From positions 238,701 through 302,700 of the forward strand of contig CAYMBV010000001.1 of assembly GCA_964388795.1 (NCBI GenBank): a stretch of DNA of 64,000 bases, written 5' to 3'. A program made the position numbers and the translations under genes. Below are positions 1-6,615 of the stretch, one piece after another. Under the pieces are notes generated by a model that was given only the letters and a program-made list of their open reading frames with translations, was not told the origin of the DNA and made no database searches. Each line of letters opens with the position of its first letter. The stretch's first letter is position 1. The stretch is from an uncultured Candidatus Saccharibacteria bacterium. Its GTDB lineage: Bacteria; Patescibacteriota; Saccharimonadia; Saccharimonadales; Saccharimonadaceae.

Positions 1-1502
1 TTAGTCTTGTGCCTAACATCAAATTGAATATCATCCCGTTTGACGTTTCCTATATATTTAACTGGTGTCATATTGAGAGAATCAACAATCTCTTGATACA
101 TATTCTCATCACCGCCGAAGGTTGCTGTCGCCGTGAATGTCACGATAGGGAAACGCTGTTGCGAATGTTTATCGTTTCGTAAGCGCTGGATAAATTCACC
201 CAAGTACCAATAATCAGGACGGAAGCTTTTTCCCCAAGTTGCAACAATATGCGCCTCATCGACAATGAAGAGACCTATTTTACGATCCCCTATGAGGCTA
301 GTGATGTCAGAGTTTGAAAGAAGCGATTCTGGCGAAAGGTATAAGATAGAAACTTCCCCACTTTTTACGCGTTCAAGTGTGCTCTCTTTTTCAAGCGGTG
401 TGTAATCAGAGTTAATTGTAGCGGCCACGTTTGTCATGCTTTGAATATTTTCAATTTGATCATTCATGAGACCGATCAGCGGACTGACAACTATCGTTAG
501 CAGGTTCTCTTTTTCTGCTAGGTAAATGGCCGGAATCTGAAACATGACAGATTTTCCAGCACCCGTCGGGGCTGTAACGAAAACATCACGAAATACTTTT
601 TCTTCAACAGAGTTTGTGCTGTTTTTAACTATGTCATCAATAATTTGGATTTGGTTTACGTAGGATAGAGATGTATCTTCGTATGGATCGGTATATACGG
701 GTATATCGTAGAAGTCGTAGTTTGGATTTTTTCGATGAAGAATACTTCTATAAGCATTGGCCCTGTCTTGATCTATCTCCTCGGGCTCGGTGCGATACTC
801 TTTGTATTCAATGCCAATACCTAGCGATTTCAAGACATTGGCAAGCTCGACCAGTTTATGTTGTTCTCGAACCTCACTCGCTATGATGGCATGAGAGATA
901 CCGTCACTTATGATCGATAGTACGATCTCGGAGTATGTAACATTATCAAACTCCTCTGGTATTTCGATAGAGCTACCTGACAAGCTGGGGTTCACAGGCG
1001 ACTCTAAAAAGGAGCTAACTGTTAAAGTCTGATTGAATTCAGACGTGGAAAGATTATAAATAATATATCCGTTGTCTCCGCGTATCTGATAGTCGCTGTA
1101 ATAGGTTTGGATATGATTGTCTGTATCTGATTGATAAAGAGCCTGCTTGGCAAGCGATTCAGACTTAGTCAATGAATCGGGGTAATACGAACTAAAGATA
1201 TCGTTCTGTACACAAACCACTTCGTAGCTGTACATCTTTGGGATGCCAGCTAAAGAGTTATTCGAAAGCCAGAGAAAAGCCTCCGCTGAAAAATATATTG
1301 GCTTACCAGACTGGAAGGCGCTATTCAGCGCAGTCAAGTCAATAGTTATATCTTCATCAGCAGAGGGCAAATCAAGAAACTGTGAGGTTTCGTCTAAATC
1401 GTTAGAAATTATATCAAGCCAACGATTAAAGCCTACAAGTACGTAAAGGTTTTTTGTATTTGGAAGCTGACTTATCGCTGACGAGATATTATTTTGGATC
1501 AC
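1..1502 (-). CDS. RecQ-family SF2 helicase with ~300-aa N-terminal extension (5' part; continues off the left edge)
   Basis: Missing from the ORF track; translated by hand. Frame is open from 1523 to the edge. Walker A DVFVTAPTGAGKS (~552-587), SPLIGLMNDQ, YLSPESL, Walker B FIVDEAHIVATWGKSFRPDY (~220-266), TATA motif. First usable start is GTG at 1502; start uncertain. Confidence 0.85.
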   Translation of the reverse strand, partial: MIQNNISSAISQLPNTKNLYVLVGFNRWLDIISNDLDETSQFLDLPSADEDITIDLTALNSAFQSGKPIYFSAEAFLWLSNNSLAGIPKMYSYEVVCVQNDIFSSYYPDSLTKSESLAKQALYQSDTDNHIQTYYSDYQIRGDNGYIIYNLSTSEFNQTLTVSSFLESPVNPSLSGSSIEIPEEFDNVTYSEIVLSIISDGISHAIIASEVREQHKLVELANVLKSLGIGIEYKEYRTEPEEIDQDRANAYRSILHRKNPNYDFYDIPVYTDPYEDTSLSYVNQIQIIDDIVKNSTNSVEEKVFRDVFVTAPTGAGKSVMFQIPAIYLAEKENLLTIVVSPLIGLMNDQIENIQSMTNVAATINSDYTPLEKESTLERVKSGEVSILYLSPESLLSNSDITSLIGDRKIGLFIVDEAHIVATWGKSFRPDYWYLGEFIQRLRNDKHSQQRFPIVTFTATATFGGDENMYQEIVDSLNMTPVKYIGNVKRDDIQFDVRHKT

Positions 1503-1695: not shown

Positions 1696-1719
1696 AAAAA
1701 ACCGCCCTTTCGGACGGTT
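1696..1719 (-). terminator. Intrinsic terminator downstream of tRNA-Asn
   Basis: Minus strand AACCGTCC-GAAA-GGGCGGTT followed by a T-run. Confidence 0.8.
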
Positions 1720-1827
1720 CTAACGGTTTTGTACCTTTGTGGTGACATCTAGTACTCTTGTCTGGCTCAAAGGGTAAATCTGACCTTTCGGTCAGGGAAC
1801 CCGGTCTGGGTATTTACCTGCTGAGCT

Positions 1828-1902
1828 TGGCTCCGGCAGCTGGGCTCGAACCAGCGACCTTGTCGTTAACAGCGACCTGCTCTACCACTGAGCTATGCCG
1901 GA
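1828..1902 (-). tRNA. tRNA-Asn (GTT)
   Basis: TCCGGCATAGCTCAGTGGTAGAGCAGGTCGCT-GTT-AACGACAAGGTCGCTGGTTCGAGCCCAGCTGCCGGAGCCA; cloverleaf with encoded CCA. Confidence 0.97.
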
Positions 1903-1913
1903 ATACTTGACGT

Positions 1914-1942
1914 ATTATACCGCTCATACCAGGGGTAGTCAA
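1914..1942 (-). promoter_or_regulatory. Sigma70-type promoter of tRNA-Asn
   Basis: TTGACT (1937-1942), 17-bp spacer, TATAAT (1914-1919) on the minus strand. Confidence 0.85.
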
Positions 1943-2016: not shown

Positions 2017-3663
2017 CTAGTTGCTTGCCTGTCGGCGACGCGCCAGCATGAAGAGCGCTGCTGCTGCGATAACGCCGAGGCCGGCAACGATTACCGGGTT
2101 CTTCGCCACAACTTGCAACACACCGGTGTTTGGTGCATCTGGATCGGTGCCGTCAGCAAGTGCCGTCAAGACCACATCGTTACCGTCACCACCAACATAG
2201 CTAATACTGAAGGTAACACCGCCGACGCTGAGCTGTGCGCCTTCTGCGAGGCCGTCAAAGGTACCTTGAACGTCTGTGGTGCTGCGGTTGTCGATAATGG
2301 TGAAGCTGTCACCTGTTTTCACAGACCAGCCCTCAGAGAGTACAGCGTTGAGTGTCGCGCCCGAACTAAATGATACTGCGCTACCGCTGTCCGAGTAATC
2401 CTCACCGACGACAAGCTTATCATAGGTAGACGTATTCAAGATCTCAGTTTGGTAAGTACCGTCCAACGCGAACGACTCAAGAATAGTCATTGTTCCAGGT
2501 GAATTTCCTGGGGCAATAGCTCCACCATCACTCACATAAACATCAGTTGCTGTTCCGGTACCCTTGAGGAGACCACCAGCACCAACCGAGATAGCATTGC
2601 GTGTTCCGTTAAGGACTGCTGTTTGGTTGTTGCCAACGCTGACGAACGTAGAAGACGTGCCATCAAGATTCAGTGTCTGCTTCGGCGCTTCCTCTTGGCC
2701 CTGTGGCGTTGTCAGTGTGCCGGAAGTACCACCCTTAACGGTAAATTTATGTCCGTTTGTTGTGTAAGGTCCGTTAATAATAAGGTTGTTTTCGCCAGCG
2801 TAAAAGAAGTTACTTGTCAGGGTCACAGCACCAGTGAGTGTCAGGTTGAGTGCTGGGCCACTTCCGCCTGCGCAGCCGGTAATATAGCCCTGTACTGCAC
2901 TAAACGAACCGGTTCCACCAAGGGTAAATGGTTCAGCGACCGTCTTATTTACTCCGTGAACAATTGCAAGCCTTCCAGCGCCAGATACGGTCGTTCCCTG
3001 AGCGCTAGTTCCCAGCGAGTCAGCACCAATTGCCGCCCAGCCGGTAACGTTAATCAACCCAGCATACGTAGTGTTTGCACCAGAGACATTGACCATATCA
3101 CCAACAAGGTTAAGCGCTCCTGTGCCGCTCAAGTTACTAGAAAGCGACAGGCCACACCCCGAGGTGCCAGAGATGGTTAGCGCATTCGCCTGTAGGTTAA
3201 GCGTTGCACCCTCACCACCAATATCAACCTTAGTAATAGTCACTGGAGCAGCAAGGGTTAAGTTGTTTCGAATAATCGGAACAATGTACGATGCGTTTGT
3301 ACCAGTAATCGTGTTCTGGACATTGCCCGTGAGGGTAAGGGCATTTCCCGTAAGGGTATAAGAATCCCACCCTGAAGTGCTACCGACGAAAGAAATACCA
3401 GCGACACTCAAGCCAGTAAGGTCATTAGTGAGCCCTTGCTGGTCTGTGATACCAGTGGCATCGAATGTCAGCGTGTCACCATTTTGTGGTACTGCGTTAG
3501 TACTCCAGTTATCAGCGTCGGCGAATGTCGTTCCATCACCTGCGCCGGTCCACTGGAGCGATGCCGCCGAAGCAAATTGTACGTTTGTAAATGACAGCGC
3601 AGTTGTTGCGAACACGAACAACAGCGCAGCAGATACATACTTTGTTTTTTGAGCTAGTTTCAT
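2017..3663 (-). CDS. Secreted beta-helix / autotransporter-passenger-like surface protein with C-terminal APNTG sorting signal
   Basis: Signal peptide (…FASA|ASLQ); WTGAGDGTTFADADNW start; Gly/Thr-rich beta-strand repeats; GGAIAPGNSPG and SYVGGDGNDVVL motifs; C-terminal APNTG + hydrophobic helix + RRR tail. Confidence 0.8.
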   Translation of the reverse strand: MKLAQKTKYVSAALLFVFATTALSFTNVQFASAASLQWTGAGDGTTFADADNWSTNAVPQNGDTLTFDATGITDQQGLTNDLTGLSVAGISFVGSTSGWDSYTLTGNALTLTGNVQNTITGTNASYIVPIIRNNLTLAAPVTITKVDIGGEGATLNLQANALTISGTSGCGLSLSSNLSGTGALNLVGDMVNVSGANTTYAGLINVTGWAAIGADSLGTSAQGTTVSGAGRLAIVHGVNKTVAEPFTLGGTGSFSAVQGYITGCAGGSGPALNLTLTGAVTLTSNFFYAGENNLIINGPYTTNGHKFTVKGGTSGTLTTPQGQEEAPKQTLNLDGTSSTFVSVGNNQTAVLNGTRNAISVGAGGLLKGTGTATDVYVSDGGAIAPGNSPGTMTILESFALDGTYQTEILNTSTYDKLVVGEDYSDSGSAVSFSSGATLNAVLSEGWSVKTGDSFTIIDNRSTTDVQGTFDGLAEGAQLSVGGVTFSISYVGGDGNDVVLTALADGTDPDAPNTGVLQVVAKNPVIVAGLGVIAAAALFMLARRRQASN

Positions 3664-3748
3664 TTTTTAACCCTTTTTGTTTTTATGGATTTTATCTAGT
3701 GTAGCATTTCAAGCTGACGCTAAGCAAGCACCTTTAAGTATCCAGAAG

Positions 3749-4774
3749 TTAAGATACTTGTTCTGTGTACACAACGACGCGGTGGTCGAAGGTTTTCTTC
3801 TCTTCAATCCACTTTCCAGTGCAGGTCATAATATTGAGGCCTCGCGTTACACCATTAACTGGCAGCAGGACTTTTTTCATATCCAGCCCTTCGAGCGGCA
3901 CAACTTCGGTTTTTACGACTCGATACTTCAGTTTGGTGCCATCGCCTTTTTCTACCTGTAGCGTATCGCCCTTCGTAAGTTTATCCAGGTAGGCAAACAG
4001 CCCTTGGCGAGTTGGCCCAGAGGCGTGGCCGTCAATAAACACCGCGCCCACTTCGCCGGGTTTCACGCTGCCGTTATACCAGCCTGCGTCGTAAATATTT
4101 ACTGGTGCCTGGACCGCGCCATTGGCGTTAACGCTCATAGGCAAAACGCGAGCGGCTACATTAATCTTATCAATAAAAAGTGCTCGTGGTAGGGAAGCAG
4201 CGACGGTATAGTTTGCCAGCGCATTGGTTTCAACGACCGTTTCGTCTTTCCCTTCAGCCTCAACGGCATACTGCCCCACACCGCCCACCAGGCCAGTACT
4301 AGTTGTAAGCACCCCACCCGCTTTCACTTGCCTGTTGGTGAGCCACGTATCGATACTGACGTATCCCGTTACGCCCACTAGCAGCACGGCCGCAAACACC
4401 AAAAATAATCGCTTTAGATCCTTAGTTTTACGCTTTTCACGTACTAAGCTTTTTCGAGCATTTTGCAAAGCTTTCTCGAGCGCTCGTTGCTTTGCAGTAG
4501 GCGCAAGGGTTTCAATAGTATTTGTTACCGGTGTCTCACTGACTAATGTTTCGGTAATCTCGGTAATCGTTGTTACTCCCGATGGCTCGGGTGCCTGTTG
4601 CTGCATAAGACTACTGCTCACAGCTGGCTTCGGCGCTGGTATGACATCTTGCATCACTACCGTGCGACGCTCATACACCATTCGCTGGCCCGCATTGGCA
4701 GACTGAACCGGCTCGGTAGGCCGAGGCGGCGGGGTAATTTGGGTTCGTGGGTGCGGAACGATATCTTGTTGCAT
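3749..4774 (-). CDS. Class F sortase with long N-terminal cytoplasmic region
   Basis: Single TM helix, then RALFIDKINV, DAGWY, FIDGHASG (His), LNIMTCTG (Cys), DHRVVV (Arg). Confidence 0.9.
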   Translation of the reverse strand: MQQDIVPHPRTQITPPPRPTEPVQSANAGQRMVYERRTVVMQDVIPAPKPAVSSSLMQQQAPEPSGVTTITEITETLVSETPVTNTIETLAPTAKQRALEKALQNARKSLVREKRKTKDLKRLFLVFAAVLLVGVTGYVSIDTWLTNRQVKAGGVLTTSTGLVGGVGQYAVEAEGKDETVVETNALANYTVAASLPRALFIDKINVAARVLPMSVNANGAVQAPVNIYDAGWYNGSVKPGEVGAVFIDGHASGPTRQGLFAYLDKLTKGDTLQVEKGDGTKLKYRVVKTEVVPLEGLDMKKVLLPVNGVTRGLNIMTCTGKWIEEKKTFDHRVVVYTEQVS

Positions 4775-4873: not shown

Positions 4874-5344
4874 CTATCGCCCAACAATGGCTGCTAATTT
4901 ACTGCGCATTGCCTCGTAAGCTCCGTCAAAACCCAGCACTTTTAGCGCGCCAATCAGCACATACAATTCATCTAGTGTTATTTGGTCCTTCTTTTGGCCG
5001 TAGAGTGTGAATCGTGCGTTCACCGCATCAACCAGCCATTTTTCTCGCGCCGTGCGTGCCGCACCGGTGCCACCAGACAACACACCAGGATCGCCCGCTT
5101 TAGTGGGGCCGGTGCCAGTACCGTAGGTCGCTGAAATGACTTCAAGCGATCGCGCCGAATTATCACGCTTTTGCAAATAACCGCGCTCGATCAACCCATT
5201 AATATGCACGGCAACCGTTGAAACCGATTTATACCCAAGCCCACTCATAACTTCGCGGTAACTCGGTCCGTAACCATGCTCTTTAATAAAGGCGTCTACC
5301 CACAATAGCAATTCGCGCTGGCGTTTCGTTGATCGTTCGGTCAT
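4874..5344 (-). CDS. LexA-type winged-helix DNA-binding protein lacking the S24 peptidase domain
   Basis: TKRQRELL…FIKEHGYGPSYREV…LGYKSVSTVAVHINGLIERGYL…SARSLEV matches the LexA N-domain; no Ala-Gly site/Ser-Lys peptidase fold follows. Confidence 0.85.
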   Translation of the reverse strand: MTERSTKRQRELLLWVDAFIKEHGYGPSYREVMSGLGYKSVSTVAVHINGLIERGYLQKRDNSARSLEVISATYGTGTGPTKAGDPGVLSGGTGAARTAREKWLVDAVNARFTLYGQKKDQITLDELYVLIGALKVLGFDGAYEAMRSKLAAIVGR

Positions 5345-6615
5345 AAGTGCTCCTTACTGCGGGCCAAGACCATTGCCGCTAAGCCCCACCAAATAAGTGC
5401 CACCGTCTCATCCGCCCATACCGGCAGCAACATACCAATAACCAGCATGCCAATGCCGCTGGCGAACACCCCTAACGCCAGCCAATTTCGCCGCCGTTGC
5501 CATAATTTCTCTAACACTAAGTACGAAATAACGGTGAAGATTGCCAACCCAAGCCACCCAACTTCGTGTGCAATAAACAATAACTGGTTCTCGATAATAA
5601 CCGTTTTTTCACTCAATATCGACGCCGAACCTGTGCTGCCAATACCTCCGCCAAATGGTTGCTGGACCATACGCGCAAAACCATCGATAAGCGATTCAAC
5701 ATGCCCATCATTCGAGTTCGTGTCGTTCCCTTCGTGCGGATCTTCGTGCAAAATAACCTGCGACACAATCGGCGTCTCTCGAAGCACGAACAAACTACCG
5801 GCCAGCACCAACCCGGCAACTGCCAGCCCAACCCAGGCTATTTTCTTCACACGCCGCCCAAACACAACCAAGGCAATAATGACAACCGCGACTGCCAAAG
5901 CAAGACCAGCACTGCGTGAGTAACTAGACCATAGTGCCACCATGCTGCCGATTCCTAGGCCAGCAACCAGCCACACCTGCCACTTATCAAGCTTCTGTGG
6001 GCGACGCAGCCACAGCGCACCAAGGAACGCAAATACTATAACGGCATAAGCGCCCAACGGGTTCGGGCCGCGCAATGTGCTGTTAATACGAACGAAGTCC
6101 ATATTTTCGTCGACGGTTAAGAACGGTGCAATGGTTGCATTGCTATAGCCAATATATTTCAAAACATCATGCGGCAAGACCGTCGCCTGCAACAGCGCAA
6201 AACCCACTACTACCACCGCACCCGCAATAAATACCTTCACAAACAGCCCATACCACTTTGGATAGAGCCGCAGCGCCACAAATACTAAAACAAAGAACAA
6301 CAGATAGCGTAGATTAATCAGAAGCCCGGCAGTCGTCGCCTCAAAGCCAGTATAAAACAGGGGAATAAGGGCGATATTAAGCGCCGCAAACGCACCAATC
6401 AGCCAAAACAGCGGCGTATGAAACTGCGGCCAAGCCTTACGACGCGTCACTAAAATAATAGCCAAAACCAGCGCAACCCCTAGCAGTATTTCTTTCCAAG
6501 ATTTAATCAGTAACGAATAATCTGGCAACAGCGTTCCCAATCCAACCGAAAGCGGCGCGTGTAAAACAATTCCACCAAATACCACCAGGAGTATCGCCAC
6601 AAAAAGTTTATCCAT
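5341..6615 (-). CDS. O-antigen ligase / Wzy_C-like polytopic membrane protein
   Basis: ~12 TM segments; RINSTLRGPNPLGAY, SYSRSA, GGGIGS and ENQLL…E.G motifs typical of WaaL/Wzy_C. Confidence 0.8.
   Translation of the reverse strand: MDKLFVAILLVVFGGIVLHAPLSVGLGTLLPDYSLLIKSWKEILLGVALVLAIILVTRRKAWPQFHTPLFWLIGAFAALNIALIPLFYTGFEATTAGLLINLRYLLFFVLVFVALRLYPKWYGLFVKVFIAGAVVVVGFALLQATVLPHDVLKYIGYSNATIAPFLTVDENMDFVRINSTLRGPNPLGAYAVIVFAFLGALWLRRPQKLDKWQVWLVAGLGIGSMVALWSSYSRSAGLALAVAVVIIALVVFGRRVKKIAWVGLAVAGLVLAGSLFVLRETPIVSQVILHEDPHEGNDTNSNDGHVESLIDGFARMVQQPFGGGIGSTGSASILSEKTVIIENQLLFIAHEVGWLGLAIFTVISYLVLEKLWQRRRNWLALGVFASGIGMLVIGMLLPVWADETVALIWWGLAAMVLARSKEHL

Follow-up and report, generated by a model that had tools for sequence, protein, structure and literature searches.

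How a protein built like an autotransporter passenger could be displayed at the cell surface with no translocator β-barrel of its own is the question raised by a locus in an uncultured Candidatus Saccharibacteria bacterium (GenBank assembly GCA_964388795.1; a 775-kb genome in two contigs, C1 and C2, 97.75% complete). Saccharibacteria (TM7, Patescibacteria) live attached to other bacteria and, to our knowledge, little is known of their surface proteins apart from type IV pili. We analysed a stretch of 64,000 nucleotides (C1:238701-302700; the window), in which two neighbouring open reading frames (ORFs) on the minus strand encode a secreted β-helix protein of 548 amino acids (aa) with an APNTG motif near its C-terminus (2017..3663) and a 341-aa sortase resembling class F (3749..4774). 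We consider it likely that the two genes constitute a dedicated sortase-substrate cassette in a monoderm-type Saccharibacterium, built around a variant of the LPXTG signal that is particular to this lineage, because the signal is conserved, the sortase gene adjoins the substrate gene in nearly all related loci, and other class-F-like sortases lie beside unrelated proteins bearing the same signal.

The 548-aa protein and its sorting signal

The initial annotation had placed both ORFs here and had ascribed to the 548-aa product a passenger-like helix, a cap and a tail of APNTG, transmembrane segment and RRR with no barrel, all of which we recovered. The protein (minus strand; stop codon 2017..2019) opens with a Sec-type signal peptide, MKLAQKTKYVSAALLFVFATTALSFTNVQFASA|AS, read from the sequence as aa 1-33 (...FASA|AS; 3565..3663, minus strand), and ends in ...SYVGGDGNDVVLTALADGTDPDAPNTG-VLQVVAKNPVIVAGLGVIAAAALFMLA-RRRQASN. 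Structure prediction, which had been suggested as a check for the β-helix, returned one: the AlphaFold2 model based on a 58-sequence alignment (predicted local distance difference test, pLDDT, 91.2; predicted template modelling score, pTM, 0.79) comprises an uninterrupted right-handed β-helix over residues ~35-505, a short linker bearing APNTG, and a terminal helix (523-547), with a low-confidence helix at the N-terminus (2-26). No β-barrel is present in the sequence or in the model, and the protein ends in one membrane helix.

By parts, the tail reads ...SYVGGDGNDVVLTALADGTDPD-APNTG-VLQVVAKNP-VIVAGLGVIAAAALFMLA-RRRQASN, a tripartite arrangement (aa 510-548; 2020..2136, minus strand, with APNTG at nucleotides 2122..2136) of pentapeptide, spacer ending in N-P, hydrophobic helix of ~19 residues and basic RRRQASN, delimited from the tail alignment and its column counts. 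It is strikingly constant across 120 aligned homologues. In the 58-sequence alignment, position 510 is Ala in 34 sequences, Thr in 12, Pro in seven, Val in two and Ile in two, and never Leu; it is followed by P511 (56/58), N512 (51/58, with Asp in five), T513 (58/58) and G514 (55/58), and then by N522 (51/58), P523 (58/58), G530 (53/58) and the RRR cluster. This constraint extends to homologues with as little as ~36% identity. Among genomes further removed, Asp is often found at the third position of the motif, with Lys, Ser or Thr there occasionally, and one small clade has LPKTG or LPQAG. The motif on which the initial annotation had staked its proposal is therefore conserved in orthologues, and the alignments describe the signal as [A/T/P/V]-P-[N/D]-T-G-x(7-8)-N-P-helix-RRR, related to LPXTG but lacking its Leu. 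A genome-wide scan for such tails found only nine P[ND]TG words in all ORFs of at least 100 aa, three of which lie within 55 residues of the C-terminus and are accompanied by a membrane helix and basic residues. Given the conserved columns in 58 homologues and the rarity of P[ND]TG words in the genome, we judge that APNTG in the 548-aa protein is not a chance match.

The same tail would be missed by standard annotation since it fails TIGR01167, the model of the classical LPXTG signal, scoring 15.8 bits against a cut-off of 15.9 and aligning only with model positions 13-33, which correspond to the helix; by contrast, the LPTTG and LPQTG tails of the same genome pass the model, with 18.4 and 18.5 bits and alignments that start at position 1. 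In an NCBIfam scan of the tail alone, the best match was NF033846 (18.7 bits, under the cut-off of 23.5), which describes the NPXTG anchor of Ruminococcus, and the tail was likewise under the cut-offs of the curated LAVTG (NF058582) and GVDTG (NF058571) variants. Like the LPXTG signal, it places a pentapeptide, a hydrophobic helix and a basic tail in that order at the very C-terminus and keeps the P-x-T-G core, but it differs in having Ala, Thr, Pro or Val rather than Leu at position 1, Asn or Asp at position 3, and N-P 8-9 residues past the Gly. Variant sortase signals are an established category, including LAxTG of class E, LPxTA of class D, NPQTN of class B and (S/P)PxTG of Clostridioides difficile SrtB, and the Saccharibacterial signal is mechanistically conventional.

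The neighbouring sortase

The product of the adjacent gene (3749..4774, minus strand) matches the Pfam Sortase family (PF04203, peptidase C60) over aa 200-339 with 63 bits against a cut-off of 26.6. Its best NCBIfam class is class_F_sortase (NF033748), at 101.8 bits compared with 31.9 bits for the next class, but this is under the 166-bit cut-off of that model and we therefore term the enzyme class-F-like. The initial annotation had named a co-oriented class F sortase with His, Cys and Arg, and the sortase and these residues are confirmed. Of 87 related sortases, 86 retain His250, Cys318 (in IMTCTG) and Arg332. The AlphaFold2 model has a disordered N-terminal region of ~90 residues, a long helix (92-156) containing a membrane segment (~123-141), a linker, and a catalytic domain (186-341) with pLDDT above 90 and the eight-stranded β-barrel of the sortase fold. 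Foldseek returned 94 matches to this model at E<=1e-3, and all 50 that were listed are sortases, with target-normalised template modelling (TM) scores of 0.5-0.7. When solved sortases in the PDB were searched by sequence, phmmer with the single sequence gave no match and a profile gave weak ones (best 32 bits), and no class is assignable from structures. Taken together, sequence and model predict a type II membrane sortase with a His-Cys-Arg triad, acting as a transpeptidase.

According to two papers that cite the work, the sole characterised class F member is SrtF of Cutibacterium (Propionibacterium) acnes, which is specific for LPXTG (Di Girolamo et al., 2019, cited in PMC8225981 and PMC13251363). 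What class F sortases do in the cell, and on which natural substrates, is essentially unknown despite their wide distribution; a quadruple knock-out of those in Actinoplanes led to no observed phenotypic change (PMC13251363). Sortases are also common in bacteria of the candidate phyla radiation (PMC6744442). The Saccharibacterial enzyme resembles class F in fold, catalytic triad, N-terminal membrane anchor and best-scoring class, and departs from it in its sub-threshold score and in a cytoplasmic extension of ~120 aa. In contrast to the LPXTG reported for SrtF, the substrates linked to the Saccharibacterial sortases bear [A/T/P/V]P[N/D]TG. Extensions of this kind, 90-170 aa long, cytoplasmic and largely disordered, occur at the N-terminus of long-form members (window 4412..4774, minus strand; L024, L053, L056, L057, L062, L064, L071, L075 and others among the loci retrieved), beginning with a conserved (I/L)-x-L-D-N-P-x-F-x-G-R-L-R type motif in distant members and with M-Q-D-I-I-P-P...RGAIRPPAR in close relatives.

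Conservation of the pairing across Saccharimonadia

A search of a phylum-wide sample gave two matches to the helix family in 201 genomes, which was too sparse, and a class-level search was used instead. The family was found in 37 of 301 sampled Saccharimonadia genomes, with a patchy distribution even within the genus. Of 29 loci from other Saccharimonadia genomes, 28 carry a sortase homologue immediately beside the substrate gene and in the same orientation, so that the pairing of a sortase with a non-canonical APNTG-type signal, as first proposed from the window's sequence, is borne out comparatively. Gene order varies: in those genomes the substrate gene precedes the sortase gene, and in the window it follows it. 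In two close relatives (L133:3461-8778 and L135:3385-8773; substrates 71% and 61% identical), the slot between a LexA-like gene and tRNA-Asn holds four genes, which encode, in this order, a sortase of 232 aa (srt1), a Beta-lactamase2/PG_binding_4 protein of 581-599 aa, the helix protein with 548-549 aa and a sortase of 350-352 aa (srt2), and it is with srt2 that the window's sortase aligns end to end. Neither srt1 nor the beta-lactamase-like gene is present in the window, through loss or original absence, and the long sortase is encoded there on the opposite side of the substrate gene. Since slot contents and order differ in this way among relatives, we interpret the cassette as occupying a variable slot between a Wzy_C gene, accompanied in some genomes by the LexA-like gene, and tRNA-Asn, and the sortase-substrate linkage as one that survives rearrangement.

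The association extends beyond the helix family. The fetched loci together contain 87 distinct class-F-like sortases, of which 67 have, within 400 bp on the same strand, a protein ending in xP[N/D/K/S]TG, a transmembrane segment and basic residues, most commonly with APNTG (19) or APDTG (10), and six of the 67 partner proteins have no match to the β-helix family. Leu occupies position 1 in one partner; its sortase falls in a separate, well-supported clade with sortases located beside other LPKTG or LPQAG tails. A further 20 class-F-like sortase loci were drawn from genomes, or from sites within genomes, lacking the helix family, and seven of these directly adjoin a protein ending in VPNTG, SPNTG, APNTG, APVTG or APDTG followed by a helix and basic residues; in an eighth, such a protein lies ~1.9 kb from the sortase. 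Seven of these eight tailed proteins have no BLAST match to the helix family. At the genome level, a class-F-like sortase is present in all 37 genomes with the helix family and in 161 of the 264 others (Fisher p=9.5e-8). This test and the counts of 67/87 and 37/37 ignore shared ancestry, and the co-variation of motif with sortase clade also reflects organismal phylogeny.

Proposed mechanism and alternative explanations

From its sequence, the 548-aa protein is expected to be exported by Sec and then to stay in the membrane through its C-terminal helix and the RRR stop-transfer tail. By analogy with the general sortase mechanism, and in keeping with the comparative evidence, we infer that the neighbouring class-F-like sortase would recognise [A/T/P/V]-P-[N/D]-T-G, probably together with the N-P at the start of the helix, and cleave after Thr513 to form a thioacyl intermediate, from which the β-helix would be transferred to a peptidoglycan precursor and so displayed covalently on the cell wall. 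Exclusive specificity of the enzyme for this substrate is a further, putative step, as is any role in adhesion.

Several findings weigh against so simple a one-to-one scheme. Besides the sub-threshold class F score, these include orthologous sortases with no adjacent substrate, as in genomes G358 and G396; in G358, which belongs to the same genus, the long sortase stands as an orphan between Wzy_C and tRNA-Asn (L113, G358:C3:17000-26500). The adjacency count is inflated, since the helix family was the route to most of the fetched loci. The genome under study encodes three sortases in total, the other two being a 219-aa class-F-like paralogue (C2:104552-105211) and a 411-aa class C/D/E-like enzyme (C2:133592-134827), either of which could also process the APNTG tail; adjacency is no proof of exclusive specificity. 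It has three xPNTG tails, that of the 548-aa β-helix protein and two PPNTG tails, each with a helix and basic residues, on an 825-aa BNR-type propeller (C1:216587-219085, minus strand) and on an RCC1-repeat protein of ~740 aa with a spacer of ~25 residues before the helix (C2:35335-37566, plus strand). Neither PPNTG protein is linked to any sortase, so several substrates may share one enzyme, or vice versa. Three LPxTG tails complete the set, belonging to two DUF11/isopeptide pilin-like LPTTG proteins and one small LPQTG protein (C1:96502-97845, plus strand; C1:421411-422979, minus strand; C2:3473-3883, plus strand), for which the 411-aa class C/D/E-like sortase is the presumed enzyme. This genome thus combines two types of signal with two types of sortase, as an orthogonal two-channel system would, but this is no proof of one.

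That one of the other two sortases processes the APNTG tail, leaving the adjacent enzyme with a different job, appears unlikely to us. The three sortases and the two unlinked xPNTG proteins lend it some colour, as do the tandem class-F-like sortases within one cassette in relatives, which blur any division of labour, but it sits poorly with an adjacency that persists across rearrangements (28/29 and 67/87), also with unrelated passenger proteins, and the LPxTG tails of the same genome are the natural clients of the class C/D/E-like enzyme. We regard as similarly improbable a sortase that cleaves the protein and merely releases it or joins it to an acceptor other than the cell's own peptidoglycan, such as a glycopolymer made by the Wzy_C and sugar-transferase genes, another protein or the wall of the host. 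The conserved position of the cassette beside Wzy_C, Bac_transf and glycosyltransferase genes would fit such an acceptor, as would the unusually long cytoplasmic extension of these sortases, and the physiological roles of class F are unknown (PMC13251363); the envelope-gene neighbourhood is nevertheless weak evidence, the cassette contains no pilin-type Lys motif or second substrate, and the tripartite signal has the classical architecture of wall sorting. It is very improbable that the tail is a plain C-terminal membrane anchor with an uncleaved xPNTG: although it scores under the cut-off of every curated sorting-signal model, a near-invariant P-N-T-G and a constant linkage to sortase genes are hard to explain for a passive anchor.

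A dedicated cassette, which we favour, leaves room for a broader and more tentative proposal. The Saccharibacterial class-F-like sortases might represent a distinct and undescribed specificity class that reads a bipartite signal, [A/T/P/V]-P-[N/D]-T-G plus an N-P helix cap, orthogonally to LPxTG sorting by the class C/D/E-like sortase. They could in that case provide a separate display channel for swappable host-contact modules (β-helices, BNR and RCC1 propellers), with the conserved cytoplasmic extension (LDNPxFxGRLR-type in distant members) coupling display to an intracellular partner; we put this forward as possible, short of probable.

In the searchable literature we found no paper on Saccharibacteria sortases or sorting signals, nor on an xP[N/D]TG motif, the motif strings returning solely unrelated uses of those letters. 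The pairing of xP[N/D]TG with class-F-like sortases in Saccharibacteria is real, conserved and apparently undescribed. It supplies a probable natural substrate for a sortase class about which little is understood and, being a conserved one-to-one pairing with a distinctive signal, offers a directly testable enzyme-substrate pair. Knowledge of the signal would also permit genome-wide prediction of the wall-anchored surfaceome of this lineage, which standard LPXTG models miss, and an orthogonal sortase-motif pair could serve protein ligation.

Relation of the β-helix to autotransporter passengers

Full-length relatives of the helix protein were confined to Saccharibacteria, including Candidatus Nanosynbacter sp. 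TM7-076 (L050), in a tblastn scan of one genome per species, and among more than 580 homologues of ~550 aa all named ones are Saccharibacteria or Saccharimonadales. No Pfam or NCBIfam domain, autotransporter models included, matched the 548-aa protein, and none matched the 58 aligned family members; the PATR repeat (PF12951/TIGR02601) had no match at E<=0.1 in the former or at E<=0.01 in the latter. The best-conserved part of the protein is a C-terminal helix module (aa ~340-505; 2149..2646, minus strand), which contains APGNSPGT..., ends in a SYVGGDGNDVVLTAL cap and has a column identity of 0.65-0.78, compared with 0.34-0.46 for the central region (aa 121-270), the least conserved. It is common to PATR and autotransporter-type proteins of other phyla: the same scan located it in Planctomycetota, Verrucomicrobiota, Proteobacteria, Acidobacteriota and Actinobacteria, and nearly the whole helix is shared in a few cases (Akkermansia, Gemmataceae and Casimicrobiaceae). 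Most scanned relatives in other phyla contain PATR repeats, and most also match the EprS autotransporter model (NF051851, ~450-570).

A family profile searched against the PDB matched the Ssp autotransporter of Serratia marcescens within its passenger (8e7f, E=4.9e-10), the match covering query residues 347-460, a region that includes the (V/I)APGNSPGTL motif. Foldseek comparison of the helix with the PDB ranked β-helix proteins at the top, mostly passengers (Ag43, Ssp, Hap, pertactin, Hbp and IgA1 protease), with E-values of 8e-5 to a few e-3. As the TM-scores were only ~0.2, we do not take this ranking as specific kinship, and it indicates little more than a right-handed β-helix. The initial description of an autotransporter-style passenger is accordingly fair as resemblance, on the profile match to Ssp, and finds no backing in the TM-scores or in a Pfam PATR match; with no direct PATR match, the label draws on the 8e7f profile match and on the homology seen with PATR proteins from other phyla. 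The family is like PATR-type passengers in its right-handed β-helix, its profile match over aa 347-460, its YVGGDGNDVVLT cap and its full-length tblastn homology to PATR-bearing proteins of Gemmataceae, Akkermansia and Casimicrobiaceae, and unlike them in having no translocator β-barrel, no detectable PATR, and a sortase signal as its anchor. Of the two hallmarks of a type V autotransporter, it has the β-helical passenger and lacks the C-terminal translocator β-barrel.

What follows the cap differs between relatives. The module of other phyla also closes in YVGGDGNDVVLT, after which we found PEP-CTERM in Verrucomicrobiaceae (L098), IPTL-CTERM in Usitatibacter (L081) and Lysobacter (L099), an IPTL-like tail, read directly, in Acidobacteriota (L089), three CWB2 wall-binding repeats in Acidimicrobiales (L097), a cadherin and serralysin-like region in Rhizobium (L073), an IPATG sortase-type tail with a helix and RRRRR in Ilumatobacteraceae (L107, monoderm Actinobacteria), and nothing at all in Gemmataceae (L077). 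Because modules ending in YVGGDGNDVVLT bear such diverse anchors or none, also in monoderm Actinobacteria, the comparison describes the helix as a portable, anchor-agnostic module joined to each lineage's own anchoring system, monoderms included. The varied anchors and the occurrence in Actinobacteria rule out a module specific to diderm type V secretion, and the suggestion of a diderm-type adhesin re-anchored by a sortase was overstated.

The variable N-terminal and central faces of the helix, together with a conserved C-terminal stalk and cap, fit a variable surface-contact protein, a reading prompted by the variable helix centre, by how patchily the family is distributed and by its variable genomic slot; a putative role as adhesin or in host attachment is plausible. 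A glycoside-lyase function was not adopted, nothing having been found for it beyond weak PL6 and pectate-lyase matches (E 0.05-0.2). Within the module, GGDGNDVVL (aa 491-499; 2167..2193, minus strand) matches the RTX nonapeptide consensus GGxGxDxUx, and G491, G492, G494, N495 and D496 are invariant among the 58 homologues, such that a single calcium-binding turn may cap the helix at this point.

Gene order and genomic context

On the minus strand the order of transcription is a Wzy_C-type protein, a LexA-type protein, the 341-aa sortase, the 548-aa protein, a short hairpin and tRNA-Asn. The Wzy_C gene (5341..6615, minus strand; PF04932, 36.1 bits) encodes an O-antigen ligase/polymerase-like membrane protein and forms the conserved left border of the cassette, being present also in L113, L120, L133 and L135. 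The tRNA-Asn(GTT) gene (1828..1902, minus strand; ARAGORN, and 66 bits with Rfam RF00005) forms the conserved right border of the slot and is likewise found 3' of the cassette position in L133, L135 and L113. The LexA-type gene (4874..5344, minus strand) directly precedes the sortase gene, and its start overlaps the end of the Wzy_C gene. Its 156-aa product is a winged-helix DNA-binding protein (PF01726, 54.7 bits) without an S24 peptidase domain, and as the gene occupies the equivalent position in L133 and L135 it is a possible candidate for a dedicated regulator of the cassette.

The tRNA-Asn lies 115 bp downstream of the substrate gene and has its own strong promoter-like site (TTGACT-17-TATAAT, 1942..1914), with a terminator after it at 1721..1698. 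Beyond it, the window (1..1502, minus strand) continues into a stretch of lower guanine-plus-cytosine content (0.43 versus ~0.50), whose product is helicase-like and has GAGKS and DEAH motifs. Other genes follow the equivalent tRNA-Asn in relatives (N6_Mtase/Methylase_S, or MerR), which suggests that the region 3' of this tRNA is an integration hot spot.

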